64,000 nt of DNA from Candidatus Poribacteria bacterium (GCA_021162805.1 JAGGXZ010000036.1:9985-73984); one strand, 5' to 3'; numbered from the stretch's first letter, positions 8,594-32,053 are shown. Made by a program: numbers and translations. The notes: generated by a model from the letters alone, not told the origin.

Positions 8594-8630
8594 GGATCGA
8601 TAACCGCTACACTCAAGGGAAATTTGAGCG
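8594..8630. repeat. conserved ~35-nt intergenic palindromic element, copy A (GGATCGATAACCGCTACACTCAAGGGAAATTTGAGCG)
   Basis: Near-identical to copy at 20891-20924 (32/34 nt), partial copies at ~30442-30465 and ~31883-31903 (minus); inverted repeat GCT(ACA)CTCAA-N7-TTGAGCG. Confidence 0.7.
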
Positions 8631-8705
8631 TGTTGAACTACTCCGACCACCTAGGAGATTATACCATAATTTACCGGGTGATGTCGGCTTCTCACGTTAA
8701 TCCTC

Positions 8706-8730
8706 GAACATTTTCCGCCGAAATTTCGTC
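8706..8730 (+). promoter_or_regulatory. ECF-type promoter (GAAC-N17-CGTC) upstream of ECF sigma factor gene
   Basis: tcGAACattttccgccgaaatttCGTCtaa about 40 nt upstream of TTG start at 8772; matches the -35 GAAC / -10 CGTC architecture of autoregulated ECF sigma promoters. Confidence 0.5.
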
Positions 8731-8771
8731 TAAGAGATCGAAGGTGAGATTGAAACCTATAGAGGAAAATC

Positions 8772-9326
8772 TTGAGTGGCGAAGAAATCGTGTTGATTCA
8801 GAGGTTGAAACAGGGGGACGAGAAGGCATTCGAACAGATCTTCCGCAGATATCAGAAGAGGGTTTACAACGTCGCCTACAGAATGACCGGCAATCGCGAG
8901 ACGGCGGAGGATATGACACAGGAGGTATTCCTCCGCCTCTTCCAGAAGATCCATAAGTTCAAGGGCAAATCCTCCTTCTCCACGTGGTTGTATCGCCTAA
9001 CCGTCAATTTATGTCTGGATCACCTGCGAAAACGGAACGCACACCCGACTGAGAGTCTGGAGGATATCGACGAGAAAGCCCTTATATACGAAAAAACCCC
9101 TGAGGATGATGTCATTCTGAGGGAACGCAGAGAGGCCATACAGAGGATAATCGGCTCTCTCCCCGGTAAAATGAGGGCCATAATAATCCTTCGTGAGATA
9201 GAGGGGTTGTCCTATAAGGAGATCGCCGAGGCGATGAGCTGTTCAATGGGAAGGGTTAAATCGCTACTGCATGAGGCCAGGATGGAACTAAAACGCCGGA
9301 TGGAGAGGAATAAGGGGGAATTATGA
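8772..9326 (+). CDS. ECF (sigma-70 family, group 4) RNA polymerase sigma factor
   Basis: 184 aa; region 2 (…YRMTGNRETAEDMTQEVFLRLFQKIHKFKGKSSFSTWLYRLTVNLCLDHLRKR) and region 4 HTH (LSYKEIAEAMSCSMGRVKSLLHEARMELK); TTG start. Confidence 0.9.
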   Translation: MSGEEIVLIQRLKQGDEKAFEQIFRRYQKRVYNVAYRMTGNRETAEDMTQEVFLRLFQKIHKFKGKSSFSTWLYRLTVNLCLDHLRKRNAHPTESLEDIDEKALIYEKTPEDDVILRERREAIQRIIGSLPGKMRAIIILREIEGLSYKEIAEAMSCSMGRVKSLLHEARMELKRRMERNKGEL

Positions 9327-9889
9327 TGAGATGTCGCAATGTGCGCAGGAAACTCTCCGAGTTTTTAGACGGCGAATTGGATGAGAGAACGCGGGAGGAG
9401 ATCCGTAGACACCTCGCGATCTGTGAGGGGTGTTCCAAGGAGTATGATGAGATGGTCGAGGCCGTCTCGCTCGTCCGGGCTCTTCCGAGGCTCGAACCTC
9501 CTGGGGATATGTGGCCGGCCCTTAAAATGAAGCTCGAAAGCGCTGGAAGATCGAGATTTACATGGCGGGAGCGATTGAAGAGGTTGACGGTTCAACCCAT
9601 GGTTCAACACCCTGTTCTCGCCCCTCTGATCCTGTTTATCGTCGCCGGGGCACTTGCCACAATGGGATGGTGGATGTTCACGAGATCGGGTTCGGATATC
9701 CCGGAGATGCAATTGCTCAGCTTATATGTTCAGGAACATGCCCGATATTACTCGCGGCAGATACTGCCTTCCGATCCGTTTCTGGAATCGGAGGTCGTTC
9801 GAGAGTTGAAAGCTCCCGCCAAGGTGAGGAAAACCGGATCGAGTTATGAGCTCCAAACGTATATCAGCTTGTATTACGAAGGAGAGTGA
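9323..9889 (+). CDS. anti-sigma factor with N-terminal zinc-finger (zf-HC2) and one TM helix
   Basis: 188 aa; MMRCRNVRRKLSEFLDGELDERTREEIRRHLAICEGCSKEY (H-x3-C-x2-C motif) then TM segment PLILFIVAGALATMGWWMF; 4-nt overlap with sigma gene. Confidence 0.8.
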   Translation: MMRCRNVRRKLSEFLDGELDERTREEIRRHLAICEGCSKEYDEMVEAVSLVRALPRLEPPGDMWPALKMKLESAGRSRFTWRERLKRLTVQPMVQHPVLAPLILFIVAGALATMGWWMFTRSGSDIPEMQLLSLYVQEHARYYSRQILPSDPFLESEVVRELKAPAKVRKTGSSYELQTYISLYYEGE

Positions 9890-9893
9890 GGTC

Positions 9894-10958
9894 ATGAAGG
9901 TGATGTGGGTTTGTCTCACATTGATGCTGTTGATAACCCTCCAGCCCAGGGGGGGACGGGATTTACCCGATCCTCAAGATATACTGAGGCAGATGGTGGA
10001 GGCTGAGAGGAGAGCTGATTTCGTGGGGAGGCGCCTGGTGATAGGTTTCGGCGGACGATATAACATGGTTCGAGAGGAGAAAGTGATAAATAAATCACCG
10101 GATAAGCAACGCATCGAAGTGCTAGCCCCGCCTGAGATCGCGGGCTCCGGGTTGATCCGGCTGGGGAGACGGGAATGGCGTATACCTCCGAAGGCAAAGG
10201 GAAAACCGTTCGGACCTCCCCCATATCGTCCCGGTCCTCCACCTCCTAAATTCGGCCGCTCACAGAGGGAATTGGAACTGATGCTCCATAACTACTCGGT
10301 GGGGATAAGCCCGGGAGGGAGAATCGCCGGACGGAGGACCTATCTGCTGGAGATAAAGCCGAAACACAAAGGAAGACCGTCCAGGAGGATATGGGTGGAT
10401 GCCGAAAAGGGCCTGCCGCTTAGGGTGGAGAACTACAACTCCGAAGGCGAGCTCAGATTCCTCGTAGTGTATACCGAGATCTCCTTCCCATCAAAGATGG
10501 AAGATAAACTGTTTGTTCCCCCGAAGGAGGGCGTTGAGGGCGAAAGGAAATTTAGAGGACCATACGGCGGAGGAGAATTAAACCTTGAGGAGCTGAGACG
10601 GAAGATCTCATTCCGTATACTTATCCCGGAGTTCCTTCCCGACGGCTTTGAATTTCAAAGCGCCGGACTGATAAGATATCAAAGGCGGGAGATAGCCCAC
10701 CTGCGGTATACCGATGGACTGGTGCTGCTATCGCTGTTTGAAACGAGCGGTGGAAGGCCGGAAGGACGACATAGAGCCCGGGAGAGGGAGATGGAAAAGC
10801 CGATCCAGATACTGGGCCTGAGATGTGAGTTGTTCTATGACGGTCAGTTGCGCATATTGCGGTGGGAAAAGGGAGGTATTAACTTCACCTTGATAGGGGA
10901 TCTGAGTGAGGGGGATATGACCAAGGTCGCCGAATCCCTGATAGCACAATCACGGTGA
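9894..10958 (+). CDS. RseB/MucB- or LolA-like periplasmic protein completing the sigma/anti-sigma operon
   Basis: Signal peptide MKVMWVCLTLMLLITLQP starting 5 nt after anti-sigma stop (ORF track start 9846 is an upstream extension); Pro-rich linker; position typical of RseB. Confidence 0.5.
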   Translation: MKVMWVCLTLMLLITLQPRGGRDLPDPQDILRQMVEAERRADFVGRRLVIGFGGRYNMVREEKVINKSPDKQRIEVLAPPEIAGSGLIRLGRREWRIPPKAKGKPFGPPPYRPGPPPPKFGRSQRELELMLHNYSVGISPGGRIAGRRTYLLEIKPKHKGRPSRRIWVDAEKGLPLRVENYNSEGELRFLVVYTEISFPSKMEDKLFVPPKEGVEGERKFRGPYGGGELNLEELRRKISFRILIPEFLPDGFEFQSAGLIRYQRREIAHLRYTDGLVLLSLFETSGGRPEGRHRAREREMEKPIQILGLRCELFYDGQLRILRWEKGGINFTLIGDLSEGDMTKVAESLIAQSR

Positions 10959-11009
10959 AATCCATTTTTGAAGCGCAAATAAATCCATCGCGTGATAATA
11001 TGAGCGAGT

Positions 11010-12605
11010 TCAAAAGGCGGTGCCGAGACTGACATGGATCTTGCCGTTCAGGATGGAATCGCCGCGGGCCAGGCCATAGCAGAGATTTAGCCTCCCCGAT
11101 TGAGCCTCCAATCTCGCCCCGATGCCATAACTGATCTGGAGCTGAGGCGGATTCATCGTTCCTAAATCGACGAAGAGGAACAGATGAGATCCCAAACCGG
11201 TCAGAAACCTGTATTCCAGATTCGCATATGCCATCGATCCTCCTTGAAACCACCCCTCCGTGTATCCTCTCAGCGTGTTGGCTCCTCCTAAGCTGAAGAG
11301 CTCAAACGGCGGTATATCCCGCCCGAAAAGCCTGCCAAGGTGAGCTCCTAAAGCCAGCACCTGATTTCGCCGCGTGGATAGATAAATTTGCGCTCCAAAG
11401 GTAAGTCTCCCCAAACGGTAATCCCCCGCCGTTATCCCCAAATTAACGCTCTCAACATCCCCGGATGTTGGATTCAGCGCATAATCCCGCACATCACGCC
11501 TGAAACCAGCTTCAAATCTAACCGCCCTGTTCCTCATACCGTTCAGCTCGGCCGTCTCGTATGAGAACCCTCCCTTGATGAGATATCTGAAGTTCAATCT
11601 GCTGATAAGCGATATTCCATAGGATTTGAATCCCGCCTGACGTTCATACCTCAAACTTAGATCGATCGGTCTGCCCAAGATCCAGGGCTCAAGATATCGG
11701 AACTCGATCCGTTTCGACTCAGCCGAACGCCACTCGAAATGAAGCGCTCTTCCGCTGCCGAGTATGTTCGTCTCATCGATGAAGATCGTCCCTGTCAATT
11801 TCGCCCTACCTCCGGGAGTGATCGGTGGGGCGTATCCCAGCAGGCCCTCGATTCTCCCGCTGTGGGCCTCCGTCACGTGGGGATTGAATATGACCTCACC
11901 CGGCCTCTCACTTCTCTCGATCGCCTTCGGCTCCACATCATATATGTAGGGCATGTTCCTGAGCAGACGGATCGACTCATCGACAAGGCTCTGTCGATAC
12001 GGCATGCCCGCTCTGATGGGAAGCTGACGGAGTATCACCTTGGGCTTGGTCTTCTTAAGCCCCGTCACCCTGACGTCAGCTATCCTAACCGGATCTCCCT
12101 CATCGATCATTATATCAAAGTTGAGCTTCGATCGATCCTTGGAGAGCCGAAATTCAGTTAGGCTCATGCGTGCGAGCGGATATCCCTTTTCGGCGTAGAT
12201 CCTGAGAACCCGCTCGATCCCCTCATTGATTCTTCCAACGTCGAATTCCCCTCCCAGTTTCAACGCTCTCCTGATCTCCTTCTCGCTTAGGATCGAATTT
12301 CCAACGATCCGTATATCCCCGATCTTGACCCTTCTCCCCTCGTTCACCTTCAGGGTCAGCTTCATTCCCCCTTTGCCGCTCGGCTGAAACGAGTAATCGA
12401 TAGACGCAAAGAGATATCCGCGCCTGACATATTCCCTAAGTACCTTGGAGATCGCCGGTTCAATCTCCTCCTTTGAGACCTCCCCGCCTGGCGTGAGCTG
12501 GAGAGTTCGAAGCAGATCTGCCCTTGAGATGATCTTATTTCCGGTTATCTCGATCGAATCCACCTTCACAGCGGCGATGATGAACGTGAGGGTGATTATG
12601 ATCAT
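11010..12605 (-). CDS. Omp85-family outer-membrane protein (BamA/TamA-like) with POTRA domains and C-terminal D15/surface-antigen beta-barrel
   Basis: 531 aa; POTRA-like repeats (IRIVGNSILSEKEIRRALKL…), C-terminal barrel ending …KIHVSLGTAF (aromatic terminus). Confidence 0.85.
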   Translation of the reverse strand: MIIITLTFIIAAVKVDSIEITGNKIISRADLLRTLQLTPGGEVSKEEIEPAISKVLREYVRRGYLFASIDYSFQPSGKGGMKLTLKVNEGRRVKIGDIRIVGNSILSEKEIRRALKLGGEFDVGRINEGIERVLRIYAEKGYPLARMSLTEFRLSKDRSKLNFDIMIDEGDPVRIADVRVTGLKKTKPKVILRQLPIRAGMPYRQSLVDESIRLLRNMPYIYDVEPKAIERSERPGEVIFNPHVTEAHSGRIEGLLGYAPPITPGGRAKLTGTIFIDETNILGSGRALHFEWRSAESKRIEFRYLEPWILGRPIDLSLRYERQAGFKSYGISLISRLNFRYLIKGGFSYETAELNGMRNRAVRFEAGFRRDVRDYALNPTSGDVESVNLGITAGDYRLGRLTFGAQIYLSTRRNQVLALGAHLGRLFGRDIPPFELFSLGGANTLRGYTEGWFQGGSMAYANLEYRFLTGLGSHLFLFVDLGTMNPPQLQISYGIGARLEAQSGRLNLCYGLARGDSILNGKIHVSLGTAF

Positions 12606-12608
12606 GGG

Positions 12609-13355
12609 TCAGACCTCTGTCGGTTGATCCTCTTTTCTGCCTATGAAGTAAACGGCCGAGGCTATCAGGTGGGAGTTAGGTAGTCTGATGAGGATCGGGT
12701 CGAGAATGATAACCATTGGGAAGGTGATCCAGCCGAAGATGAGCGAGATCGCCTTACCGATCCAAAAATTACCGAAGGAAAGTGCGATCCCCACCAACTC
12801 GCGCATCACCCAATGTAGGGCGCTCGCTGGCCCCACACACGGCCCGGACTCGATCCTCCGGAAATCCGAGAGCAATTTCTCCAGGCCGGTCACCGTATAT
12901 CGCTGATAATCGTTCGGTGAGGCATGATACCCTTGTATGAAGGGCACCGCCACACAGATGTATCCTCCGGGTTTTAGAACTCTCCGGATCTCATAGATCA
13001 CAGCTTTCGGATCGGGCACGTGTTCCAGCACTGCCTCGCTTATGACGGCGTCGAACGATTCATCTTTGAACGGCAGCATCGCTCCGTCGCCTATCACGTC
13101 CACATTCGGAAATGGCTCGATATCCAGGTTAACCACACTTGACGCCCACCTTCGGTTACCGGAGCCCAGATCAAGGGCGATCCCCTCATCGCCTATCTCC
13201 CTGAGGATCCTCCTTACGGCTTTATCCCACCTAGGTGCCCTGTAGGGACATCCGGAGAGATTCCAGAGTATTCTGTTTCTGCGGAGGAAGGATTTCAGGC
13301 TCGACTCAACACCCTCCGATATACGTCGAGGTATCTCTCGGCTATCCTGGCCCAA
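12609..13355 (-). CDS. class I SAM-dependent methyltransferase (Methyltransf_11-like) with C-terminal TM segment
   Basis: LDLGSGNRRW (motif I), FDAVISEAVLEHV, VLKPGGYICVAVPF (motif post-II); 60-nt overlap with downstream GT4 ORF suggests the true start is uncertain. Confidence 0.7.
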   Translation of the reverse strand: MGQDSREIPRRISEGVESSLKSFLRRNRILWNLSGCPYRAPRWDKAVRRILREIGDEGIALDLGSGNRRWASSVVNLDIEPFPNVDVIGDGAMLPFKDESFDAVISEAVLEHVPDPKAVIYEIRRVLKPGGYICVAVPFIQGYHASPNDYQRYTVTGLEKLLSDFRRIESGPCVGPASALHWVMRELVGIALSFGNFWIGKAISLIFGWITFPMVIILDPILIRLPNSHLIASAVYFIGRKEDQPTEV

Positions 13356-14440: not shown

Positions 14441-14459
14441 CAGTATTCGCAGCTTCCTA

Positions 14460-15344
14460 TCATCGACTTTTATACCGCGATCTATCTACATTACCTCCAT
14501 ATCTGAGAACATAGAAGATGACGTTGGTCATGAATCTATATACGTCATTCGACCTTCGTCGGGCCAGCAGGGTTCGGCTTGGCACCTCAACCGTTTCCAT
14601 ACAGCACATGTAATCCTTTCGGTTATATATAACGGCCCATCTCCCCTTGATCTTGATCCCCCGTATGTAGGGGAAAAGCGATTGTGCCTTGATGTTCTCT
14701 GACCCCCAGAAGACATCCCCCCCGGTAGGAGGTCCGGGGAGCTTGTAGTAGATCTTGAAAATCCTGTCGGTCCGCCGTATGGGTTCTATCTGATACTCAG
14801 GTAGGGTCAATCTCAGTTCCTCCCTCACCCTACCAGCGAAAAGGCCCTTGAAACCACAGTCGTCGAAGAAGAGCGTGCCCTTCCTCTCGACGAGATACTT
14901 CCGAAGCATCCTTCTCTCCTGTGGGGTCAAAGATGTGACGAGCCTGAAGGGTGGGCCGTTCCTGCCATCCCTTTCGAGGTTATGCTGGAAGACCACCCCT
15001 TCATCGTGTCCCGTCATGATGATCAGCGGTGCATCTAGTATTCTGGGATCGGTCAGCTCGAGTGAGCCATCGCCTATCCGCATATCGGCTCTGATCCTGG
15101 TTCTGGTCTGAAGCCACTCGATCAAACCGGTAAGCGCCGTCGGATCCTGCCACCAGTCCGCCATCCTGTGTTTTAACCTCACCAACCTGATAAACCCATC
15201 GGCGTTTAAGCCTCTCCCTATCAACACGCCCCCAAGTTTACCCGGCGGAAGCGACGGACCGGACTCATCGGTCTCCCCAAAGGATGAAGAAGGCCCCATG
15301 AAAGCGATAGACAAACCGACCATGCATATGATGATCCCTTTCAT
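14460..15344 (-). CDS. DUF4159-like protein (GATase1-like fold family), secreted; paralog of 15831-17192
   Basis: 294 aa with signal peptide; shares long blocks (GFIRLVRLKHRMADWWQDPTAL, TGHDE, GTLFFDDCGF..LFAGRVREEL, GPPTGGD.FWGSEN, GRWAVIYNRKDY.CCMET) with the paralog; family assigned from memory. Confidence 0.5.
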   Translation of the reverse strand: MKGIIICMVGLSIAFMGPSSSFGETDESGPSLPPGKLGGVLIGRGLNADGFIRLVRLKHRMADWWQDPTALTGLIEWLQTRTRIRADMRIGDGSLELTDPRILDAPLIIMTGHDEGVVFQHNLERDGRNGPPFRLVTSLTPQERRMLRKYLVERKGTLFFDDCGFKGLFAGRVREELRLTLPEYQIEPIRRTDRIFKIYYKLPGPPTGGDVFWGSENIKAQSLFPYIRGIKIKGRWAVIYNRKDYMCCMETVEVPSRTLLARRRSNDVYRFMTNVIFYVLRYGGNVDRSRYKSR

Positions 15345-15354
15345 CTTTCCCGCT

Positions 15355-15591
15355 CTACTCAGCTTTCAGGGCAACAGGTACTCGGGCGATAAGGCGTATA
15401 TCGTCCTGAGGCACTTGCTGCCCTTCCTCCGATAACACTTCCAGATGTAAGGTGATAGCCTCCCTCACGTTCTGCAGTGCTTCTTCAATCGTCTCACCTT
15501 GTGAGAAACATCCCGGCAGCGCCGGTACCTCCACCCAATATCCTCCCTCTTCAGCATCGTGAATGATAACGGTATAATCCATTGACTCCAC
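15355..15591 (-). CDS. hicB: HicB-family antitoxin (UPF0150)
   Basis: 78 aa; YTVIIHDAEEGGYWVEVPALPGCFSQGETIEEALQNVREAI is the canonical HicB RNase-H-like N-domain; GTG/ATG start. Confidence 0.8.
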   Translation of the reverse strand: MESMDYTVIIHDAEEGGYWVEVPALPGCFSQGETIEEALQNVREAITLHLEVLSEEGQQVPQDDIRLIARVPVALKAE

Positions 15592-15592
15592 C

Positions 15593-15783
15593 TCATAGTA
15601 GATTGATGAATTCTTCCTCAGTTAATCCTGCTTTACGAATAGCTGCCTTGAGCAAACCAACTTTAATTTCCCCTGTAACAGGAATAGTGATCAATTGTCC
15701 ATTTGGCATTTTGATGTTAACATGACTGCCTTTCCCTTGCGAACTTCACCCCCCCGCTCGTTTAAAGGCTCTGACAGCTTCAT
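15593..15783 (-). pseudogene. hicA: hicA toxin gene with a -1 frameshift (GGG->GG) early in the ORF
   Basis: Minus-strand ATG AAG CTG TCA GAG CCT TTA AAC GAG CGG GGG GGT GAA GTT CGC AAG GGA AAG G|CA… gives MKLSEPLNERGGEVRKGK then stops after 29 codons; shifting one base restores GKGSHVNIKMPNGQLITIPVTGEIKVGLLKAAIRKAGLTEEEFINLL* (HicA GSH…ILKQAGL architecture), ending 1 nt before hicB start; 191 nt, not a multiple of 3. Confidence 0.65.
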
Positions 15784-15830
15784 ATCCTTTTATACCTCGT
15801 AATAAACGTCCCTGCATCTTTATCATTCAC

Positions 15831-17192
15831 TTACGGCTTATACTGAGATCTATCCACGTTACCTCCATACTTCATGGCGTAGAAGAGGAGGTTCGTCATG
15901 AACTTATGCACGTCGGTCGATCGACGCAGTCTCAGCAACGTTCTGCTCGGTATCTCCATCGTCTCCATGCAGCAGAGGTAATCCTTCCGGTTGTAGATAA
16001 CCGCCCATCTTCCGTTTATTTTAACCCCCCATTGATACGGGAACTGGGAGGCATGTGGATTGTTCTCCGAGCCCCAGAAGATATCCCCGCCCGTCGGTGG
16101 ACCGGGCAGGGTATAATAGACGCTGTAAAGCTCATCGTTTTTATCTATGATCTGGAGCGGATATTCGGGCAGTGCCCTCCTGAGCTCCTCTCTGACCCTT
16201 CCGGCGAACAGCCCGTGAAATCCACAGTCATCGAAGAAAAGGGTGCCTTTTCTGTCGATCAGATACTTCCGTAGGGCGGCCCTCTCCTCGGGGGTGAACT
16301 CCTGGGCGAGCTGGAACTTGGCGCCTTTCTGCCCGTCGCTGTTCATGTGATGGTTCAAAACCACATCCTCATCATGTCCCGTCATAATGACCAGCGGAGC
16401 GTCCAGTATCCTCGGATCGGTCAGTTCGAGCGCTCCTCCCTCGATGCGCATGTCGGCCTTTAGCCTTGTGTGCTCCTCAAGCCAGTCGATGAAGCTGGCC
16501 AACGCCGTCGGGTCCTGCCACCAGTCCGCCATCCTATGCTTCAGCCTTACGATTCTGATGAACCCCATCACGTCCTTCCCCTTCCCGACCAGAACGGCGC
16601 CGAGTTTCCCTTCGGGGATATAGTAGAGCTTCGCCATATCACCGCTCAGTTCCCCACCGAGATCCACCTCGCCGGAGGTATTAACCAGCGACAATCCGGG
16701 CTGTTTGTTTATGCCGAGAGCTCTGACCCTTCCCGTCTGGAATCCCTTTCCAATCTTCAATCCTTTAGGCGATCCACCTGAGGGCGACAGGGAGATATCC
16801 CCGATCTTGGCGGGGATTTTAGCGGTGGTGTCCAGCTTGTTGACCATCCCCAGCTCCTTATCGGCGTTGACGTCGAGGCTACGGGGGATGATGTTAGGCG
16901 CCTTGGCGACGACCTCGGAGATCACGTTATCGGACTGAACGGATAACTTCGGGACGTTTTTATCCTCGAGATCCCTTTCAATGTCGAACTTAGGCTTGAT
17001 CGTCTTGGTCAACGGCCTTCTCGGCGGCCTCACCCTGTAATTGGACATATCGACCAGTTCGATCCAGGCGCCTGATCCCTCATTATAGGTCGTCCTTATG
17101 GCTAAACCCAGGATTATTATCCCTATCAGGTGCGCGACCAAGGCTATGAGAAAGGCCGATGTGGTCGGCCTCCTTTTGAACATCTCTCTCAC
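15831..17192 (-). CDS. membrane-anchored DUF4159-like protein (N-terminal TM helix, ~200-aa linker, C-terminal DUF4159-like domain)
   Basis: 453 aa; TM SAFLIALVAHLIGIIILGLAI; C-terminal half collinear with 14460-15344 paralog. Confidence 0.5.
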   Translation of the reverse strand: MREMFKRRPTTSAFLIALVAHLIGIIILGLAIRTTYNEGSGAWIELVDMSNYRVRPPRRPLTKTIKPKFDIERDLEDKNVPKLSVQSDNVISEVVAKAPNIIPRSLDVNADKELGMVNKLDTTAKIPAKIGDISLSPSGGSPKGLKIGKGFQTGRVRALGINKQPGLSLVNTSGEVDLGGELSGDMAKLYYIPEGKLGAVLVGKGKDVMGFIRIVRLKHRMADWWQDPTALASFIDWLEEHTRLKADMRIEGGALELTDPRILDAPLVIMTGHDEDVVLNHHMNSDGQKGAKFQLAQEFTPEERAALRKYLIDRKGTLFFDDCGFHGLFAGRVREELRRALPEYPLQIIDKNDELYSVYYTLPGPPTGGDIFWGSENNPHASQFPYQWGVKINGRWAVIYNRKDYLCCMETMEIPSRTLLRLRRSTDVHKFMTNLLFYAMKYGGNVDRSQYKP

Positions 17193-18728: not shown

Positions 18729-20804
18729 ATGAAAGAATACAGGACGGAACAGATCAGAAATGTCGCTTTAATAGGCAATGCCGGTTCAGGTAAAACTTCA
18801 TTGATCGATGCCTTTCTATTCGACGCCGGAGCAGTTGACAGGCTCGGGCGGGTTGACGCCGGTAACTCCTTTGTGGATTACGATCCTGAGGAGATAAATC
18901 GAAAGACCACGCTGAGTCTGAAGATATGTATCGCCGAATGGGGAGAGTGCAAACTGAATATCCTCGATACGCCGGGTTATGAGGACTTCTACGGCGATTT
19001 GGCCAGTGCCTTGAGGGTTGTCGATTCCGCCTTGGTCGTGATCGATGCCGTTACAGGCGTCGGAGGCGGGACGGAGAAAAGTTGGATGATGGCTGATAAA
19101 TACGGACTGCCGAGGGCGATCGTCATAAACAAGCTCGATGCCGAACAGGCTGACTTTGACGGGGTAATCGATCAGATCCAACAGGAGCTGGGCGCCAGGC
19201 TTATGCCGCTACATATCCCGATAGGCAGGGGGAGCTCCTTCTCCGGCATAGTCGACATCATCTCGATGAAAGCCTATCAGTTCGAGGGAGAGGGCAGCGG
19301 GAAGTTTGAGGAGAAGGACATACCGGGGGAACTGTTCTCCAGGGCGGAGGAGCTCCGAGAATCCTTGATAGAAGCGGCAGCGGAGGGCGAGGATGAGCTG
19401 ACCGAGAAATACCTCGAGGGCGAGGAGCTCACGCCGGATGAGATAATGAGGGGATTGAAGGCCTCTATCCGCCAGGGAATCGTCGTTCCGGTGATGTGTG
19501 CATCGGCGTATCAGAACATCGCTGTGCCGTTCATCCTGGATTTCATCGTCAAATCGCTCCCCTCACCCGTCGAATCGAAACCGATAGAAAGCGTCGATGG
19601 CGAGGAAAACCGTGATCCCTCTCCCGATGCCCCGTTGGCGGCTTTGGTCTTCAAGACGACCTCCGACCCGTACGTCGGGAAAATCAGCTACATCAGGGTC
19701 TTTTCGGGAACCCTCAGCGCCGATTCACAGGTCTTCAACTCAAGTAGAGGAGCAGGTGAAAGGGTTACGAAGCTCTACCACCTCAACGGGAAAAACCAGA
19801 TCGAAACCCCCAAGATCATAGCCGGTGATCTCGGAATAGCTGTCAAGCTTCAATCTGCTTCCACTGGCGATACCCTCTGCGCGCCGGACGCCAAGATAAC
19901 CCTGCCGGGGATCGAGTTCCCCAAACCCGTTCTCTCGCTCGCCATATCAGCCAAAAGCCAGAGTGACGACGATAAACTGAGCACTATCCTCACCTCAATA
20001 GCTGAAGAGGATCCGACCTTCCAGGTTCAACGCGATCAGGAGATGAGACAGGTGATCGTCTCCGGATTGGGCGACGTGCATCTGAACGTCACCCTGGAGA
20101 GGATCAAACGCAGATACAACATCGAGGCGACCACAGCGACACCTAAGGTTCCTTATCGCGAGACGATACGCAAATCGGTTGAGGGGATACACGCCCGCTA
20201 TAAGAAACAGACTGGCGGAAGAGGGCAGTTCGCCGATGTGGTCATAAAGATGGAACCGCTTCCACGGGGAGAGTATTTCGAGTTCGTGGATGAGATCTTC
20301 GGCGGGGCGATCCCGCGCAACTTCATCCCGGCGGTCGAGAAGGGGATCAGGAACTCGATGCAGAGCGGAGTGCTGGCCGGTTTTCCCGTCGTCGACATCA
20401 AGGTAACCCTCTATGACGGCAAGTTCCATCCGGTCGACTCCTCCGATCTGGCTTTCCAGATAGCCGCCTCCATGGCCTTTAAAGAGGCGATGCAAAAGGC
20501 CGATCCGGTGCTGCTCGAGCCGATAATGAATGTTGAGGTCACCGTGCCGGAGGAGCATATGGGCGATGTGTTGGCTGACCTCAACAGCCGCCGCGGCAGA
20601 GTGCTTGGCGTCGATCAACAGGGTAAATATCAGGTGATCAAGGCTCAAGTGCCTATGGCAGAGATGTTTAGATATGCTCTTGATCTGCGATCGATGACCA
20701 GCGCGAGGGGATGGTTCACGATGGAGTTCTCGCACTACGAGGAGGTGCCATACGACATCGCCCAGAAGATCATCGCCGCCGCTCAGGCCGAAAAGGAGGA
20801 TTGA
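18729..20804 (+). CDS. elongation factor G-family translational GTPase (EF-G paralog with atypical P-loop)
   Basis: 691 aa; G domain (NVALIGNAGSGKTSLIDA, DTPGYEDF, NKLD), domains II-V collinear with EF-G; G1 is GNAGSGKTS rather than AHIDAGKTT of canonical FusA. Confidence 0.8.
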   Translation: MKEYRTEQIRNVALIGNAGSGKTSLIDAFLFDAGAVDRLGRVDAGNSFVDYDPEEINRKTTLSLKICIAEWGECKLNILDTPGYEDFYGDLASALRVVDSALVVIDAVTGVGGGTEKSWMMADKYGLPRAIVINKLDAEQADFDGVIDQIQQELGARLMPLHIPIGRGSSFSGIVDIISMKAYQFEGEGSGKFEEKDIPGELFSRAEELRESLIEAAAEGEDELTEKYLEGEELTPDEIMRGLKASIRQGIVVPVMCASAYQNIAVPFILDFIVKSLPSPVESKPIESVDGEENRDPSPDAPLAALVFKTTSDPYVGKISYIRVFSGTLSADSQVFNSSRGAGERVTKLYHLNGKNQIETPKIIAGDLGIAVKLQSASTGDTLCAPDAKITLPGIEFPKPVLSLAISAKSQSDDDKLSTILTSIAEEDPTFQVQRDQEMRQVIVSGLGDVHLNVTLERIKRRYNIEATTATPKVPYRETIRKSVEGIHARYKKQTGGRGQFADVVIKMEPLPRGEYFEFVDEIFGGAIPRNFIPAVEKGIRNSMQSGVLAGFPVVDIKVTLYDGKFHPVDSSDLAFQIAASMAFKEAMQKADPVLLEPIMNVEVTVPEEHMGDVLADLNSRRGRVLGVDQQGKYQVIKAQVPMAEMFRYALDLRSMTSARGWFTMEFSHYEEVPYDIAQKIIAAAQAEKED

Positions 20805-20807
20805 GAA

Positions 20808-20884
20808 GGAACGAGGAACTAGGAGCGGAAAACGTTACAACGTTAAACGTTGAACGTGTAACGGATTTCCCTTCTCCTCGTTCC
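20808..20884. repeat. inverted-repeat-flanked palindromic element (GGAACGAGGA … TCCTCGTTCC) enclosing CGTTACA-AACGTT-AAACGTT-TGTAACG core
   Basis: 10-bp terminal inverted repeat at ~20808-20817 / 20875-20884; core 20833-20863 has 7-bp IR CGTTACA/TGTAACG around two self-complementary AACGTT hexamers; shares GTGTAACGGAWWTCC with 8500-8515. Confidence 0.6.
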
Positions 20885-20890
20885 TCCTCA

Positions 20891-20924
20891 TGGATAACTG
20901 CTACACTCAAGGGGAATTTGAGCG
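20891..20924. repeat. conserved intergenic palindromic element, copy B (TGGATAACTGCTACACTCAAGGGGAATTTGAGCG), 3 nt before ATG at 20928
   Basis: 32/34 identity with copy A at 8594-8630. Confidence 0.7.
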
Positions 20925-20927
20925 AAT

Positions 20928-21683
20928 ATGATTTTCGCCCTTTTCTTTCTCTGCCAAATGGGGTGGGGGGCTTTTGAGCCCTCGCCGCTTGAAGATCCCA
21001 TGTCATTCGAAGGAACAGGTTCACCCCGTCTCGTGATAGGTTATGAGGATCTAAACGAGATGGTGGGGTATACATATCTCGATTTGGTCAGTGGACCCCA
21101 CGGGATATCCGTTCGATCGTCCGGCGATCGTGAGGGATTATACAGGGAGTTCTCCATCCGGTATACCGAATATCTCACCTTAAACGGCTTGGAACTGATC
21201 CTCTCTCCCTCCTATCTATCCTGCTCGGCCAAGGGAGATCTCGGGGAGGTGGGGGCCGGGAAGGGGTTCTCATTCGATATCGGCGTCGGACGAAATCTAC
21301 GATCCGTTCGCGCTGAGGCTGTAGCTATCGGCCTTATAGGCGGAGTCAGATATAACCGACACGCCCTTAAAAGGGCGAAGGCGAAATCTTACTGGGAGAG
21401 ACCCAGCGAGAACATAATCCTCGAATTGACCATCCCGGTCGAGCAGATATCGGGACAGGTAAAGGTGGGAATATGGAACCGTAATTCCTTTCTCCGTCTC
21501 CAGGTAAAACCCACTCGAAACGCCCTCATGGAAGCGGGATGGATCTCAGGTAAAGGTGTAAGGGGAGGGTTCAGGTTTGGACTTATGGCTGATCTCGGAG
21601 ATTTCTCCCTGAGATACCGCCATTTGATCGGGAGATCGGGCATTCAGTCCATCGCCTTTGACATCACGGTGGAAGTGAGATAA
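20928..21683 (+). CDS. hypothetical secreted protein
   Basis: 251 aa, hydrophobic N-terminus MIFALFFLCQMGWGAF; no recognisable motif. Confidence 0.4.
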   Translation: MIFALFFLCQMGWGAFEPSPLEDPMSFEGTGSPRLVIGYEDLNEMVGYTYLDLVSGPHGISVRSSGDREGLYREFSIRYTEYLTLNGLELILSPSYLSCSAKGDLGEVGAGKGFSFDIGVGRNLRSVRAEAVAIGLIGGVRYNRHALKRAKAKSYWERPSENIILELTIPVEQISGQVKVGIWNRNSFLRLQVKPTRNALMEAGWISGKGVRGGFRFGLMADLGDFSLRYRHLIGRSGIQSIAFDITVEVR

Positions 21684-27045: not shown

Positions 27046-27068
27046 GGCGAAAGGATAGGTGATGAGAT

Positions 27069-27805: not shown

Positions 27806-27851
27806 TATGTTCCGATTTTCCTTCCGTGGATTAAGGACGTCAGGAAATCGA

Positions 27852-27880
27852 TTGACGTTCCCTCCTAGGGGGTATATAAT
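27852..27880 (+). promoter_or_regulatory. consensus sigma70-type promoter (TTGACG-17-TATAAT) for the 821-aa secreted protein gene
   Basis: aTTGACGttccctcctagggggtaTATAATcc about 110 nt upstream of ATG 27992 (preceded by AAAGGAGGTG SD). Confidence 0.5.
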
Positions 27881-27991
27881 CCGATCGGGAAACCAATACA
27901 GACGGAATCGACAGGGAGGATATCACATCCGCCGTTGAGCATGTCGGCTTTGGCTCCACATAGGACGGATGTCCACCAAAGGAGGTGCTTG

Positions 27992-30400
27992 ATGAAACCT
28001 TTAAACCTATTGCTGTTATTGCTGATCTCTTCATGGATGTTTGGAGCGTTATCATCAGCTTCAGGAATGCCCGGTGAGAACATCGCTAAGGGTAAGAGAT
28101 ATATGCTTTTCCCAAGGCCAAATTATCGGTATTGTACCGATCCAGGCGATAAGATCCAACTCACCGACGGAATCTATACAAAGGGGTATTTCTGGACACA
28201 AAGGAGCACGGTAGGTTGGGAGAAAGCCCATCCGGTTATCATCGTTATCGATCTCGATTCGATTCAGCCTATTAGCGGCGTTTCCTACAGCACCGCGGCG
28301 GGAACGGCAGGGGTGAATTGGCCGTCGATACTTATCCTCGTCAGCGATGATGGAAGAACCTACACCTATGTGGGTGATCTCATTGAGCTTTCGGCTGAGC
28401 ACGGAATGCCTGGGGTCAAAGGATATGCACGTCATCGCTTTTGGACGGATAAGCTTAGGACCCATGGCCGATACGTCGCTTTCATCGTAAACGGTAATGG
28501 ACCCTATGTGTTTGTCGACGAGATCGAGGTCTATCGCGGGCCGGATTCATTTTTGGAAGAGCCGTTGGTAGGGAAGAAAACGGATGACCTGAAACGATTT
28601 TTTCATGAACAGGAGATGATGCAGCTTGTGAAAAGAAGGCTACGGCTCGATCTCGCCGCCGTTCGTTCATCCCTCAAAGGCCTTCCAGAAAAGGGAAAAC
28701 TGGCCCGCGAGCTCGATGAGATCGGGAAGGAGATCAAAACGATGAGGGAAATCTCCGCGGAGGGGTTCAAAGCTGTCCTGCCTTTCAACGATCTACACCG
28801 TCGGATTTTCTCCGTGCAGGCGGCAATTTGGAGGGAGATGGGATTTCGCTCCATCGTCATCTGGAAGAAGAACCGATGGGATATGCTGAGTCCGACAGAA
28901 CCGCCCCGAGAGGGCGGGGCCGAAATTGAAGTGGCGATGATGAGGAACGAATACCGCGGGGCAGCTTTCAATATCAGCAACGCGGGTCCAGGTGAGGCGA
29001 AGCTTCGCCTTTCAATTATGGGCCTGCCTGGTGGCGTAAATCCGGATTATATCACCGTCCACGAGGTGCCGTTCACCGATACGAAATCCGGCATACCGGT
29101 TGCGGCGGCGTTGCCCCTGGCAAGGAAAAAGGGTCGATACTTCTATGTGGAGATACCTGAGGGTATGACACGACAGATCTGGCTTACCTTTCATCCTTCT
29201 AAGGATATGCCTTCAGGCGAATACACAGGTAAGATCGCGATTGAACCGACGGGAAACTCCGTGCCCATCCGATTGAAGGTGTATCCGTTTACGTTCCCCG
29301 ATCAGCCCACGCTGCATCTGGGAGGGTGGGACTACACGGATCGGGATCGCTCCTATGAAGTGACGCCGAAGAATCGAAAGGCCTTTATCAAACATCTCCA
29401 AAACCACTTCGTGGATACCCCTTGGGCGACAAGCAGTGTGATGCCGCGGGGGAAATACGATAAAAAGGGCGATATGATAGAGGAACCCTCGACCGAGAAC
29501 TTCCGGAGATGGATCGAACGATGGCCGAACGCCCGAAACTACTATGTGTTCCTCTCCGTTAGGAGGCGTTTTTCCGGGTTTGAAATGGGGACACCGGAGT
29601 TTGAAAACGCCGTATCTCAGTGGATAAGGTGGTGGGTGAAAACTCTGAGGGAATGGAATATCAAGCCAAAGCAGTTAGGTCTGCTGCTGGTAGATGAACC
29701 GAGCTCGCCTGAAAAAGATAGGATCATCATCGAATATGCCGGTGTTATCCAGAGGACAGAACCTGAGGTGGTCATCTGGGAGGATCCCACATGGAGGGAT
29801 CCATGGAAGGGGACGAGGGAGATGTTTGAGCTATGCGATGTGCTCTGCCCGAATATGGTGATGTGGATAAACGGCGGTGAAAGATTCGCCGATTTCTACA
29901 TAAAACAGCGGAAAGCGGGTAAGGAGCTGTGGTTCTATGCTTGCAGCGGCCCCGGCAAGCTGCTGGACCCCTACAGCTATCACCGAATGGAACCCTGGTT
30001 CTGCTGGAGATACGGCGCTAAAGGGGCAGGTTATTGGGCCTTCGGCGATTCCAACGGTGCCTCCTCATGGAACGAATACCTTTCCAGAATCGGCGCCTAC
30101 ACCCCTCTGTTCCTGGACGAAGACTCGGTCACGGCTGGCAAACATATGGAAGCTATCCGTGAGGGAATTGAAGATTACGAGTATCTCAGGATATTACGAG
30201 ATAGAATCGCTGAGCTGAAAGGAAAAGGGGTGAAGGTTAAAAGCCTCAACTCAGCCGAGAAGCTTCTGGAAACGGCCGCCAGACGTGTCACCGCATGTAT
30301 GACAAAGTCGAGCATGATCTACTGGAAGGAGCCGAAGGACCGTTCCGTCGCCGATAAGGTTCGAGTCGAAATACTTGAAGTGCTTCTTCTGCTCAGATAA
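27992..30400 (+). CDS. secreted hypothetical protein, glycoside-hydrolase-like (DUF4091-like C-terminal region)
   Basis: Signal peptide MKPLNLLLLLLISSWMFGALSSASG (ORF track start 27935 is an upstream extension); C-terminal …LWFYACSGPG…YWAFGD…KHMEAIREGIEDYEYL resembles GH-like DUF4091 proteins (from memory). Confidence 0.4.
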   Translation: MKPLNLLLLLLISSWMFGALSSASGMPGENIAKGKRYMLFPRPNYRYCTDPGDKIQLTDGIYTKGYFWTQRSTVGWEKAHPVIIVIDLDSIQPISGVSYSTAAGTAGVNWPSILILVSDDGRTYTYVGDLIELSAEHGMPGVKGYARHRFWTDKLRTHGRYVAFIVNGNGPYVFVDEIEVYRGPDSFLEEPLVGKKTDDLKRFFHEQEMMQLVKRRLRLDLAAVRSSLKGLPEKGKLARELDEIGKEIKTMREISAEGFKAVLPFNDLHRRIFSVQAAIWREMGFRSIVIWKKNRWDMLSPTEPPREGGAEIEVAMMRNEYRGAAFNISNAGPGEAKLRLSIMGLPGGVNPDYITVHEVPFTDTKSGIPVAAALPLARKKGRYFYVEIPEGMTRQIWLTFHPSKDMPSGEYTGKIAIEPTGNSVPIRLKVYPFTFPDQPTLHLGGWDYTDRDRSYEVTPKNRKAFIKHLQNHFVDTPWATSSVMPRGKYDKKGDMIEEPSTENFRRWIERWPNARNYYVFLSVRRRFSGFEMGTPEFENAVSQWIRWWVKTLREWNIKPKQLGLLLVDEPSSPEKDRIIIEYAGVIQRTEPEVVIWEDPTWRDPWKGTREMFELCDVLCPNMVMWINGGERFADFYIKQRKAGKELWFYACSGPGKLLDPYSYHRMEPWFCWRYGAKGAGYWAFGDSNGASSWNEYLSRIGAYTPLFLDEDSVTAGKHMEAIREGIEDYEYLRILRDRIAELKGKGVKVKSLNSAEKLLETAARRVTACMTKSSMIYWKEPKDRSVADKVRVEILEVLLLLR

Positions 30401-30441
30401 ACGCTCACATTATTAACGTTGGGATGTTTTCCCATCAATTA

Positions 30442-30465
30442 CTACGCTCAAGGGAATTCCGAGCG
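30442..30465. repeat. partial copy C of the conserved intergenic palindromic element (CTACGCTCAAGGGAATTCCGAGCG)
   Basis: Shares CTAC-CTCAAGGGAAT and terminal GAGCG with copies A/B; forms CGCTC-N11-GAGCG inverted repeat; sits between 821-aa gene stop and a truncated CocE/NonD remnant. Confidence 0.5.
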
Positions 30466-30500
30466 TGGATGAAAGGAAGGGAAGATGAGGAGGGCCGAAT

Positions 30501-31013
30501 TTGCTTATCCCTGCCGGTCCGATGGATCAAAGTGAGCTTGAAAAGAAGCCGGACGTTCTCGTATTCCAGACGGAATCCTTAGAGGAACCCGTTCAGGTGA
30601 TAGGAAGGATCACGGTTAAACTTTGGGCCAGCTCATCATGTGTGGATACCGACTTCGTGGCGAAGCTGATGGACGTCTACCCTGACGGGCGATCGATGCT
30701 CATAGCAGACGGCATCATAAGAGGTCGATTCAGAAGATCGTTGAGCAGAGAGGAGTTGCTTGAACCCGGGGCCATATATGAGTTCGACATAGATCTCTGG
30801 TCGACAGCGATAATCTTCAACAAAGGTCATCGGATCAAACTCCATATCACCAGTAGCAATTACCCGCGCTTCGATATCAATCCGAACACCGGTCAGGATT
30901 ATCATGAGGGATACGAGATGAAGGTGGCCGAAAACACCATCTATCACGACAAAAATCACCCATCACATATCCTGTTGCCGATTGTACCTCTGGAGAGGAA
31001 GGATGGAAGATGA
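30501..31013 (+). pseudogene. remnant of a CocE/NonD-family hydrolase: only the C-terminal beta-sandwich (X-Pro dipeptidyl-peptidase C-terminal) domain is present
   Basis: 170 aa starting at TTG; …ITVKLWASSSCVDTDFVAKLMDVYPDGRSMLIADGIIRGRFR… and HITSSNYPRFDINPNTGQ are hallmarks of the CocE/NonD C-terminal domain; the ~350-aa alpha/beta-hydrolase catalytic domain is absent. Confidence 0.6.
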
Positions 31014-31046
31014 GCTAAGAGCCCGAAATCGGGCTCTTGGTTACAC

Positions 31047-31871
31047 TTATATCATGTTAAACGCCTCTATCGCCTTATGATACTCCCCCTTAGCCAGGGC
31101 CAATACGCCTTTCCAGTAGTTTTCATCGGCCATCGCTCCACGTTTATGGGTTTCCAATGTTCTAAGATGTGCGGCGCAGGCTGTGATGAACCGTGATCTC
31201 TCCCTCGGACTGAGCTCCAACAGGGTTTTAGCCGCTGAGGAAAGCCTCTCGATGATGAGATCGCATACCTTCTCGCCCAATTCCCTTGAAGCGTGAACCC
31301 TTGGATCCTCACCACCGACGCCGTCCATCGGTGTCCCCGGCGGCTCAGCCTCCTTCATCTCCACCAGATCCGGAATGAGATACATCATGATCGATGTCTC
31401 CCATTTCGCGGCGTGATCTCCCCTATAGCCTATGTCACAGGCGGCCTCATACTCAGGCATGGCATAGATACACATCCCACTTCGATACATCACCTCCAGC
31501 GCAGCCCTTTTGATCTGGTAAACCTGCTCAAATCCGTAATGTCCTGTAACGGCTATGATTACCCTGAAGCCGACATGCCCCATTTGTTCGAAGATCGATA
31601 CTGCCAGATCGTGTATCAGATCTTCCGACATTCTCACTGTCCAAGGATGAGGCATACCGCCTATGGGCCAGAAGGTGGCCGGCGTTACCACCCCTCCGCC
31701 CTTTTGAGCTGCCCTGATGCAGAGCTCCCAGGCTTTAACCGCATCCAGGCCCAGAGGATTATGATATCCGTGCCATTCCAGACTGCCAAAGGGTGTATAC
31801 ACCACTGGGAATTCCTTGAACCTTGCTTCGATCTCCCTTGGTCTCAGCCTTTCCCAACGCACTTCCTCCAT
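31047..31871 (-). CDS. creatininase-family (creatinine amidohydrolase-like) protein
   Basis: 274 aa; VVYTPFGSLEWHGYHNPLGLDAVKA matches the creatininase metal-binding region (S-x-E-x-H-G-x-H-x-P-L-G-x-D). Confidence 0.55.
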   Translation of the reverse strand: MEEVRWERLRPREIEARFKEFPVVYTPFGSLEWHGYHNPLGLDAVKAWELCIRAAQKGGGVVTPATFWPIGGMPHPWTVRMSEDLIHDLAVSIFEQMGHVGFRVIIAVTGHYGFEQVYQIKRAALEVMYRSGMCIYAMPEYEAACDIGYRGDHAAKWETSIMMYLIPDLVEMKEAEPPGTPMDGVGGEDPRVHASRELGEKVCDLIIERLSSAAKTLLELSPRERSRFITACAAHLRTLETHKRGAMADENYWKGVLALAKGEYHKAIEAFNMI

Positions 31872-32053
31872 CTGAAAGACCTCCTTTTCCCTTGAGTGAG
31901 ATCACTTAGCAGCATATTTATACCATAGATTAACGGACAAGTCGATACAAATTTCTCATACACCCCGATGTCTCTTAGCTCTTGATATATCTCCCGATGT
32001 TAGGTTATAATCAAGTTGAGCGAAAGAGGAGATAAAAGTCCACATTTTAAGGC

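Follow-up and report, generated by a model that had tools for sequence, protein, structure and literature searches.

A short motif that recurs between genes in the analysed DNA (a stretch of 64 000 nucleotides, here called the window) probably represents the best-conserved end of REPIN-like repeated extragenic palindromes, a family specific to the lineage of the uncultured Candidatus Poribacteria-like bacterium in which they occur. What recurs is the right arm and outer tail of a longer imperfect palindrome, which is built as tail, arm, variable centre, arm and tail (Table 1). At least three genomes have elements of this architecture at intergenic sites unrelated to one another, in both orientations relative to genes. 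The family is restricted to a narrow clade and its structure turns over rapidly, to the point that a 119-nucleotide central segment is present in one strain and absent from another. The REPIN-like anatomy, the dispersal and the gain or loss between strains therefore identify an ordinary genomic repeat of the REP/MITE type rather than a dedicated regulatory site. The initial annotation had left three readings side by side, namely a genome-wide regulator-binding motif, a 5'-UTR RNA hairpin and the end of a small mobile or REP-like element. It is the last of these that fits a palindrome end found at non-orthologous loci, in both orientations to genes and polymorphic between strains.

Table 1 Positions of the repeat elements, their parts and the promoter-like strings in the window
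Feature	Position	Strand	Description
Element A	8483–8630		Complete 148-nt imperfect palindrome: tail, left arm, centre, right arm, tail
A left arm	8497–8520	+	TTGAGTGTAACGGAAATCCGATCC; pairs with 8594–8616; fits the arm pattern
A centre	8521–8593		CGTT/GCGTT-rich spacer with its own inner hairpin
A right arm and tail	8594–8630	+	Arm 8594–8616, GGATCGATAACCGCTACACTCAA; tail 8617–8630, GGGAAATTTGAGCG; copy A as first annotated
Tandem ECF-promoter-like strings	8503–8553	+	GTAAC-N17-CGTT and GTAAC-N16-CGTT, within A
Segment missing from L025	8500–8618		119 nt, central part of A; L025 is a 96%-identical strain
Element B cluster	20805–20927		Whole spacer from the fusA stop (20802–20804) to ATG 20928
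B outer purine/pyrimidine hairpin region	20805–20889		About 20802–20826 paired with 20870–20890
Third ECF-promoter-like string	20858–20882	+	Within B
B right arm and tail	20892–20924	+	Arm 20892–20910, GGATAACTGCTACACTCAA; tail 20911–20924, GGGGAATTTGAGCG; copy B as first annotated
Copy C	30431–30465	+	Degenerate solo right arm and tail, CTACGCTCAA GGGAATTCCGAGCG

Copies of the motif in the window

The two copies reported as almost identical, A and B, are indeed so. Their 25-nucleotide core (GCTACACTCAAGGGRAATTTGAGCG, at 8606–8630 and 20900–20924) is the same save for one purine and had no match in 100 shuffles, and the 35-nucleotide blocks that contain it (8596–8630 and 20890–20924; repeat family D12) are 91% identical. 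The right arm and tail score 39.8 bits (A) and 40.9 bits (B) against the profile of the motif. Copy C, which had been described as partial, is degenerate (66% identity to A) yet significant: a profile made without C gives it 13.9 bits (E = 0.0022), compared with 9.7 bits for the best of 60 shuffled windows. An inverted-repeat search detected no left arm and no inverted partner for C, which is placed between the stop of an F5/8-type-C protein gene (30400) and the C-terminal remnant of a CocE/NonD gene. The claim that C sits exactly where the rest of this gene is missing is roughly right, the homology to longer relatives beginning at about 30489 (GGPNLLIPAG), 24 nucleotides past C. A CocE/NonD homologue of 65% identity is a full-length frameshifted gene at a non-syntenic locus and is therefore uninformative on C.

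The fourth proposed copy, D on the minus strand at 31883–31903, does not rise above chance. It scores 8.1 bits (E = 0.16), under the shuffle maximum, and shares with the motif just 13 nucleotides (CACTCAAGGGAAA) that overlap the AAGGAGG ribosome-binding site of a creatininase gene; we rejected it from the family on both counts.

Every accepted copy is extragenic, lying between open reading frames that have a Pfam-supported identity or clear homologues. The distance from the motif to the gene start is 141 nucleotides in A (to the ECF sigma TTG at 8772), three in B (to ATG 20928) and 35 in C (to TTG 30501). A position 5' of gene starts, stated for all copies, thus applies within the window but not to the family, two members of which are described below as facing gene 3' ends. 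A and B both have the small inverted repeat that was said to be kept in each copy, CTCAA-N7-TTGAG. In C it has changed (ACGCTC...GAGCGT), and in the second copy of the related contig L017 a change of TTGAG to AAGAG weakens it. In all, two full and one or two partial copies were found in 84 kb of genome, and about five independent loci are known overall.

Architecture of the repeat

A full element consists of two inverted arms of about 20–24 nucleotides (TTGAGTGTARCGG... and ...CYGCTACACTCAA) around a non-conserved centre. Outside the arm lies a tail of about 14 nucleotides (GGGRAATTTGAGCG), which together with the arm end forms the small CTCAA-N7-TTGAG hairpin. The arm-to-arm length ranges from about 61 nucleotides in B through 120 in A to 154 in the element at the related metagenome locus L003. 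In spite of their unrelated centres, which contain slippage-prone heptamer arrays, all three fold into long hairpins (z = −4.8, −4.3 and −6.15, respectively). The strand opposite the motif reads CGCTCAAATTTCCCTTGAG-T-GTAG-CGGTTATC: the short palindrome is upstream of GTAG, and the sequence downstream of GTAG pairs solely with the partner arm, at a distance. In the left arms of A and B the tetranucleotide is GTAA.

Element A occupies a 313-nucleotide spacer between the divergent DUF4139 gene (minus strand, ATG 8458) and ECF sigma operon, and its RNA fold is a single long hairpin. Its arms, counted with their tails (8483–8514 and 8599–8630), are 32 nucleotides each, 75% complementary and 84 nucleotides apart. 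The left half is recognized by the profile as an inverted copy (8513–8480; 13.9 bits), and the right arms fit the same arm pattern as the left arm of A, but on the opposite strand. Within the centre, 8532–8544 forms an inner inverted repeat with 8570–8582, and the sequence here is unrelated to that of the centres of B and L003. The GTAACG/AACGTT blocks that had been noted beside the motif are present at A, where they are not merely adjacent to it: they are the left arm and centre of the palindrome.

Element B precedes a gene for a secreted protein of unknown function. Its fold has a minimum free energy of −45.8 kcal/mol across 123 nucleotides and is composed of nested inverted repeats. Inside the outer hairpin are an inverted arm copy (GGAAAACGTTACA, 20827–20839), a left arm (TTGAACGTGTAACGGATTTCC, 20850–20870) and an AAACGTT heptamer array (20830–20857; period 7 and 3.9 copies by TRF), and B as a whole holds four arm-like units of alternating orientation. 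A mini-ORF overlapping the ATG of this gene (MDNCYTQGEFERI) was considered as a leader peptide and rejected, as A has a 4-nucleotide indel and an in-frame stop and the related contig L016 has a 29-nucleotide insertion.

Dispersal and variation among relatives

The motif was sought in collections of genome, metagenome and viral contigs, among which the source contig is not included. The genome contigs gave one locus (L001) and the metagenome contigs nine, only L003 of which is related; the viral contigs gave none. The loci L002/4/5/7/10, L006 and L008/9 share the pattern without the flanks, in about the number estimated for the pattern by chance, and were set aside. With blastn there was no match for A against plasmids and none for B against phages. 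The sequence of element A is also present in six other assemblies, and the contigs found through the sigma protein, all of the same strain, have a filled A site in every case.

The near-identical 27-nucleotide arm-plus-tail recurs in related Candidatus Poribacteria-like metagenome contigs and occurs at unrelated loci of different genomes, and the centres at these loci share nothing. At the non-orthologous locus L001/L003 it is flanked by the start of one gene and, on the other side, by the stop of a convergent gene for an ABC ATPase. The contig L017 has two inverted copies, one at each end; the extra copy lies beyond the stop of the second gene, a position at which the window lacks one. Both this copy and that of L003 face the 3' ends of convergent genes, so that the motif is not always promoter-proximal and is found in both orientations relative to genes.

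At orthologous loci the repeat follows a narrow range of relatedness. The B arm and tail are kept in place in L015/L016 (98% protein identity) and L017 (81%), and neither arm nor tail is present at the orthologous loci of the 76%, 67% and 62% relatives. Where the window has B after fusA, a plain hairpin is found in the relative L011. Even at 98% identity the structure differs, L015/L016 having a 29-nucleotide hairpin inserted in the B arm, which in L016 parts GGATAAC from CTACAC, and one heptamer fewer.

The most direct view of this turnover is provided by L025. At its ECF sigma/DUF4139 locus the arms are missing and the sigma operon and its 5' region are kept; the flanks are identical save for one SNP. 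The junction reads ATTATCGTTG|GAAATTTGAGCG, with an ambiguity of one nucleotide, and the leftover CGCCCATATTATCGTTG|GAAATTTGAGCG is a short imperfect palindrome. Excision or deletion could account for the difference, as could insertion at a site where the tail was already present. In the outgroup L026 the A site has been rearranged.

Regulatory and non-mobile interpretations

The retention of the sigma operon in L025 without the arms and the lack of any trace of the repeat at the orthologous loci of 62–76% relatives both argue against a genome-wide regulator-binding motif. The same locus bears on a more specific reading, in which the neighbouring ECF sigma factor would recognize strings of the type TGTAAC-N16/17-CGTT, in the left arm and centre, as promoters, regulating its own operon at A and a member of its regulon at B, with the conserved motif as their shared transcribed leader. 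ECF promoters have the general signature AAC (−35) and CGT (−10) with 16–17 nucleotides between them. The window holds four matches to GTAAC-N15-18-CGTT, compared with 0.49 expected; three belong to A and B and share the strand of the genes downstream of them, and A is directly upstream of an operon of ECF sigma, zf-HC2 anti-sigma and RseB-like genes. However, the local richness in AACGTT/CGTT heptamers raises the number of chance matches, and all three element-borne strings sit in the segment or arms that are missing from L025 and L003. The missing 119 nucleotides include the strings, which the L025 operon therefore lacks, and the L003 element has GTGTAGC with no CGT at the right spacing. Further, the putative −10 of A and that of B are not equally far from the motif, the distances differing by about 55 nucleotides, and two copies of the family have no downstream gene. 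We regard this reading as quite unlikely. Promoters of the sigma-70, sigma-54 and Bacteroidetes types were rejected on the grounds that no spacing is consistent across copies and that the L016 insertion splits GGATAAC/CTACAC; the sole find of a promoter consensus scan was an extended −10 on the minus strand, outside the element.

It is very unlikely that the motif is primarily a cis-regulatory 5'-UTR module, in which the hairpin CTCAA-GGGRAAT-TTGAG would show or hide a purine-rich, Shine–Dalgarno-like loop and so control translation. A start codon does follow the motif by four nucleotides in B and C, a TTG follows it by three in A, and the B copy is kept before the orthologous gene in relatives of 81–98% identity. 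Against this, the real gene start in A is 141 nucleotides away, and the open reading frames that begin after A and C are not genes (in A an out-of-frame overlap with the sigma gene, in C a 38-codon filler before the remnant). The small stem is lost rather than compensated (TTGAG to AAGAG in L017, T to G in L015), and the L003 copy and the second L017 copy point towards the 3' ends of genes. At gathering thresholds the window has no Rfam match, and at E ≤ 1 only generic hairpins far under threshold appear; a tRNA search found none. A further possibility is that nothing here is mobile and that the elements are locally evolving intergenic hairpins (terminators or mRNA stabilizers) shaped by template switching and slippage, their likeness reflecting the shared ancestry of a few duplicated spacers. 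The one-unit difference in heptamer arrays between strains, the plain hairpin of L011 after fusA and the loss of the palindrome centre in L025, as in replication-associated palindrome deletion, are all consistent with this, but local processes do not explain how the same arm-plus-tail reached unrelated loci around unlike centres, and the L025 deletion junction has only one nucleotide of microhomology. We therefore consider local evolution on its own unlikely. DNA uptake sequences of the USS/DUS type occur about once per kilobase, also inside genes, and often as inverted pairs that act as terminators; this identity was rejected for the arm cores, which at two or three intergenic elements in 64 kb are far too sparse.

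Relationship to known repeat families

REP and REPIN sequences reach tens to hundreds of copies per genome and have a cognate single-copy RAYT (Y1_Tnp) gene that is flanked by repeats. The present family resembles REPINs and BIMEs in its extragenic sites, in its two short conserved inverted units around a spacer that is not conserved but always folds, in the GTAG within the unit and in its clade-restricted distribution; the alternating arm-like units of B are reminiscent of E. coli BIME clusters. The arms differ from REPs in not being individually palindromic, and the centres in carrying tandem heptamer arrays, of which we know of no description in REPINs. REPINs are inverted REP doublets with non-conserved hairpin-forming spacers, and their central excision leaves a palindromic singlet (PMC3337134). 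The palindromic leftover of L025 would correspond to such a singlet if the difference there arose by excision. The strict REP signature is a 5' GT(A/G)G followed downstream by a short palindrome (PMC3686654); here CTCAA-N7-TTGAG is on the other side of GTAG, so that the order of the signature differs.

The likeness to MITEs such as Neisseria Correia elements, ERIC and RUP lies in the size (60–150 nucleotides), the terminal inverted repeats, the intergenic position near gene starts and the potential to donate promoter or ribosome-binding sequences and to form RNA hairpins. The copies described here, however, share neither internal sequence nor length, and no parent IS is known. The only readable junction, that of L025, shows no target-site duplication, the TIR-like arms notwithstanding; the family therefore departs from the classical TIR-plus-TSD MITE, and REP/REPIN-like is the better label, with the departure from the strict REP order noted above. 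In PATEs, which derive from IS200/IS605 elements, the left end differs from the right and is not complementary to it, and the hairpins are subterminal. Insertion and excision without target-site duplication, hairpin ends, a plausible dependence on single-stranded DNA and conserved sequence abutting one end (the arm here ends in TCAA) are putative points of likeness to PATEs; in contrast, the ends of the present elements are inverted copies of each other and no TnpA or TnpB is nearby.

By analogy with REPINs, the element would behave as non-autonomous, single-stranded hairpin DNA, and an enzyme encoded by the host would excise and reinsert it in trans; a RAYT or an IS200/IS605-type Y1 nuclease is the most obvious candidate for this enzyme. 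No Y1_Tnp or other transposase domain was found among the window genes or in the Pfam lists of the relatives' loci that were examined. Errors of replication can also remove palindromes, with no transposase involved. Any influence of an element on neighbouring genes would follow incidentally from its position: B may supply the 5' leader and ribosome-binding region of the gene at 20928, and A may lengthen the leaders in the divergent promoter region. This suggests that the leaders of the secreted-protein, DUF4139 and ECF sigma genes have been remodelled by the repeat.

The string CGTTG^GRAATTTGAGCG is conserved beside every copy and stands alone in the empty site of L025. On a distinctly improbable view, the 119-nucleotide hairpin would be a mobile module that targets this sequence and enters, with no duplication, the apex of a short palindrome already in place there. 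It would import ECF-type promoters (TGTAAC-N16/17-CGTT) and so spread an envelope-stress regulon through a thermophilic Poribacteria-like lineage, by means of an enzyme not yet linked to such elements. Only if the targeted-insertion or promoter-carrying reading were true would a new mechanism be opened. If the family is instead of the REPIN type, as we favour, its presence in an uncultured Poribacteria-like lineage widens the known range of such repeats, the study of which has to our knowledge been almost confined to Proteobacteria. It would also flag intergenic regions where annotation pipelines may take repeats for regulatory motifs or small ORFs. Both the presence or absence of elements and the heptamer counts differ between strains of 96–98% identity, which would make the repeat a handy strain marker.

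Copies of the motif and the palindrome to which they belong

The initial annotation had placed three to four intergenic copies (A to D) of a conserved motif in the window. Two of them, A and B, are confirmed: GCTACACTCAAGGGRAATTTGAGCG, the 25-nt core, is present without mismatch at both 8606-8630 and 20900-20924, with zero matches in shuffled windows, and both copies score highly with a profile based on the right arms and tails of A and B plus those of four copies from elsewhere, with C omitted (see the table). A single repeat-finder family (D12) spans 8596-8630, 20890-20924 (91% identical) and 30431-30465 (66%). Copy C is a member of the family but a degenerate one, as its score exceeds the best of 60 block-shuffled windows (9.7 bits), and no partner arm for it was detectable in an inverted-repeat search. 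Copy D falls below this shuffled best and is not retained; it is a 13-nt match only, overlapping the AAGGAGG ribosome-binding site of a creatininase gene.

A larger imperfect palindrome contains the motif as its right half. In element A, two 32-nt arms (8483-8514 and 8599-8630) show 75% complementarity across a gap of 84 nt. The symmetry involves the arm (TTGAGTGTAACGG... / ...CCGCTACACTCAA) and extends into the tail (GGGAAATTTGAGCG), the left counterpart of which is degenerate (CGCCCATATTATCG). The arm pattern GTGTAACGGAWWTCC is found on the plus strand in the left arms of A and B and on the minus strand in both copies of the motif. Element B takes up all 123 nt between the fusA stop (20802-20804) and the ATG at 20928 and is built of nested, alternating arm-like units. 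Both elements fold much better than their shuffles (z=-4.3 for A and z=-4.8 for B).

Profile matches in the window and component parts of element B
Feature	Position	Remark	Profile score (bits)	E
Copy A	8594-8630		39.8	1.4e-11
Copy B	20892-20924		40.9	5.9e-12
Copy C	30431-30465		13.9	0.0022
Left half of A	8513-8480	Opposite strand	13.9	0.0022
Proposed copy D	31907-31886	Minus strand	8.1	0.16
B, outer purine/pyrimidine stem	20802-20817	Pairs with 20875-20890, 94% complementary		
B, inverted arm copy	20827-20839			
B, AAACGTT heptamer array	20830-20857	3.9 copies		
B, left arm	20850-20870			
B, right arm	20892-20910			
B, tail	20911-20924			

Genomic context

The spacer that holds element A is 313 nt long, with a DUF4139 gene (minus strand, ATG at 8458) on one side and, on the other, an operon with genes for an ECF sigma factor, a zf-HC2 anti-sigma factor and an RseB-like protein. 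Element B separates fusA from a secreted-protein gene without a Pfam match. Copy C has on one side a gene whose product contains an F5/8-type-C domain and on the other the C-terminal remnant of a CocE/NonD gene. This remnant (30489-31013; NCBI label CocE/NonD family hydrolase) is cut down to the 170-residue PepX_C domain; an 80% relative has at least 73 additional N-terminal residues, and in-frame homology to longer relatives starts at ~30489, directly after a TGA at 30486-30488.

Comparison with related loci

Candidatus Poribacteria is the source name given for the homologues, and the JGI contig Ga0186713_153827 includes the window. At locus B, the contigs L015/L016 (downstream protein 98% identical) retain the element with one heptamer fewer; an inserted 29-nt hairpin (AGTACGGGCGAAAAATCTTTCGCCCCTAC), not present in the window, separates their GGATAACT from CTACAC. 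L017, an 81% relative, has ACCGCTACACTCAAAGGAAATTTGAGCGAATATG ahead of the same gene and a second, inverted copy at the opposite contig end, directly past the stop of the next gene; the matching position in the window has no element. The two ends of this 1853-nt Logan contig share the same 14 nt of arm (ACCGCTACACTCAA; 1-14 and 1853-1840, inverted), the pattern expected of an assembly-graph break at repeated or palindromic sequence, which hints at several copies in that genome. A plain hairpin, AACGTCCGCTGTC-GGAA-GACAGCGGACGTT, stands where B would be in a 76% relative (L011/L012), and a 62% relative (L013/L014), in which the gene is not adjacent to fusA, has no copy.

A complete element was also found at an unrelated locus in a different MAG and a metagenome (L001/L003), between a minus-strand gene start and the stop of a convergent ABC ATPase gene. 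Its left arm is TTAAGTGTAGCGGAGATCC, its centre consists of AGGAAAC and TCCTGTC heptamer arrays, and its right arm and tail equal those of A over 25 nt (GCTACACTCAAGGGAAATTTGAGCG); the whole forms a single long hairpin (z=-6.15).

Locus A differs between close strains. In L025, where the DUF4139 protein is 96% identical and the flanks of A match the window except for one SNP, the junction reads ...ATTATCGTTG|GAAATTTGAGCGTG..., so that window positions 8500-8618 (119 nt) are absent. The remnant is a short imperfect palindrome, and the junction shows no target duplication, only 1 nt of ambiguity. The filled site was independently assembled in six other assemblies and is therefore not an assembly artefact. 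The difference could reflect insertion into a pre-existing site already bearing the tail; we favour a central excision or deletion in L025, because no independent locus has the arm without the tail, and A also carries a mirrored tail on its left side. An 82% relative (L026) is rearranged here, with the arm-like GGATCTGATCCGTTACACGTTTAACG on the opposite side of the GAGCGTGGTGA tail, and a 67% relative (L027) has nothing of the element at this locus.

Nature of the element

Judged from sequence comparison, the element appears to belong to the REP/REPIN/BIME class of repeated extragenic palindromes, as a family supported by only about five independent loci, the scanned collections not including the source genome. 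This assignment draws on its dispersal to unrelated intergenic sites in both orientations relative to genes, its conserved ends around unrelated yet always hairpin-forming centres, its restriction to a narrow clade and the clean indels between near-identical strains. REPINs (inverted REP doublets) combine the same features, among them loss of the centre by excision, after which a long palindromic singlet remains (PMC3337134). Mobilization would then depend on a REP-associated Y1 transposase (RAYT) or an IS200-like Y1 enzyme; no window gene has a transposase domain in Pfam. The element differs from a strict REP in one defining feature, as GTAG is present but the short palindrome is on the wrong side (PMC3686654), and from a classical MITE in lacking both a target duplication and internal sequence common to its copies.

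Three rival readings were weighed. Strings of the form GTAAC-N16/17-CGTT, three of them inside A and B and four in the window against 0.49 expected, adjoin the ECF sigma operon and are suggestive of an ECF promoter; however, the same operon in L025 is without them, they are missing from L003, and with this heptamer composition chance matches become more likely. A translational hairpin tied to start codons would agree with the fixed 3-4 nt to the start codon in B and C, but not with the 141 nt in A, the non-genic ORFs after A and C, or the decay of the stems without compensation. Local palindrome turnover alone would leave the identical ends at unrelated loci unexplained.

A second hairpin looks like a canonical REP, with GTAG directly followed by a G+C-rich palindrome, and was found twice: at 43558-43608 in the window (GTAGTAGTAGGGGTGAGACATTC...GAATGCCTCGCCCCTACTAC) and at 1081-1109 in L016. 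The latter is the 29-nt hairpin of L015/L016, which reads GTAGGGGCGAAAGATTTTTCGCCCGTAC on the opposite strand, directly after the GTAG of the arm itself. These hairpins may represent a mobile REP family of this lineage in its own right.

Possible effects on neighbouring genes

Element B begins one base past the fusA stop and ends three bases ahead of the next ATG. It may terminate or stabilize the fusA transcript, given that it takes the same position as the simple post-fusA hairpin of L011, and it would form the entire leader of the next gene. Near A, a near-consensus extended -10 promoter-like site (CCGACA-18-TGgTATAAT, 10/12 matches; 8687 to 8658, minus strand) lies within the leader of the sigma gene and is directed at DUF4139. 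If this predicted promoter is used, the DUF4139 transcript would cross element A and its leader would carry ~119 nt of hairpin more than that of L025.

Other features of the window and its relatives

A hicAB toxin-antitoxin pair (15345-15830, minus strand) lies between two DUF4159 paralogues (14460-15344 and 15831-17192; ~71% DNA identity, D1-D3). HicB is at 15355-15591 (PF15919, E=1e-16), and the HicA-like frame (PF07927, E=2.5e-11) has an apparent +1 frameshift at a seven-G run (seven C on the plus strand) near ~15750. A further strain-level insertion or deletion involves a PemK-toxin gene and its 81-aa partner, which in L025 (12670-13246) separate a MutL-like (PF13941) gene from the next gene; the same two flanking genes are 9 nt apart in the window (1949-1959), without the pair. 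L034 (1578-2652), an assembly of the window's strain, has the RseB-like gene downstream of the sigma and anti-sigma pair called as two ORFs (121 and 187 aa), against a single gene of 354 aa in other assemblies; a frameshift, variation between strains or faulty assembly might each explain the split. Most repeat families of the window (D4-D8, D11, D13 and D15) are internal DNA repeats of a giant 2509-aa protein (46673-54202, minus strand) with many Big_1, He_PIG and Big_9 repeats.
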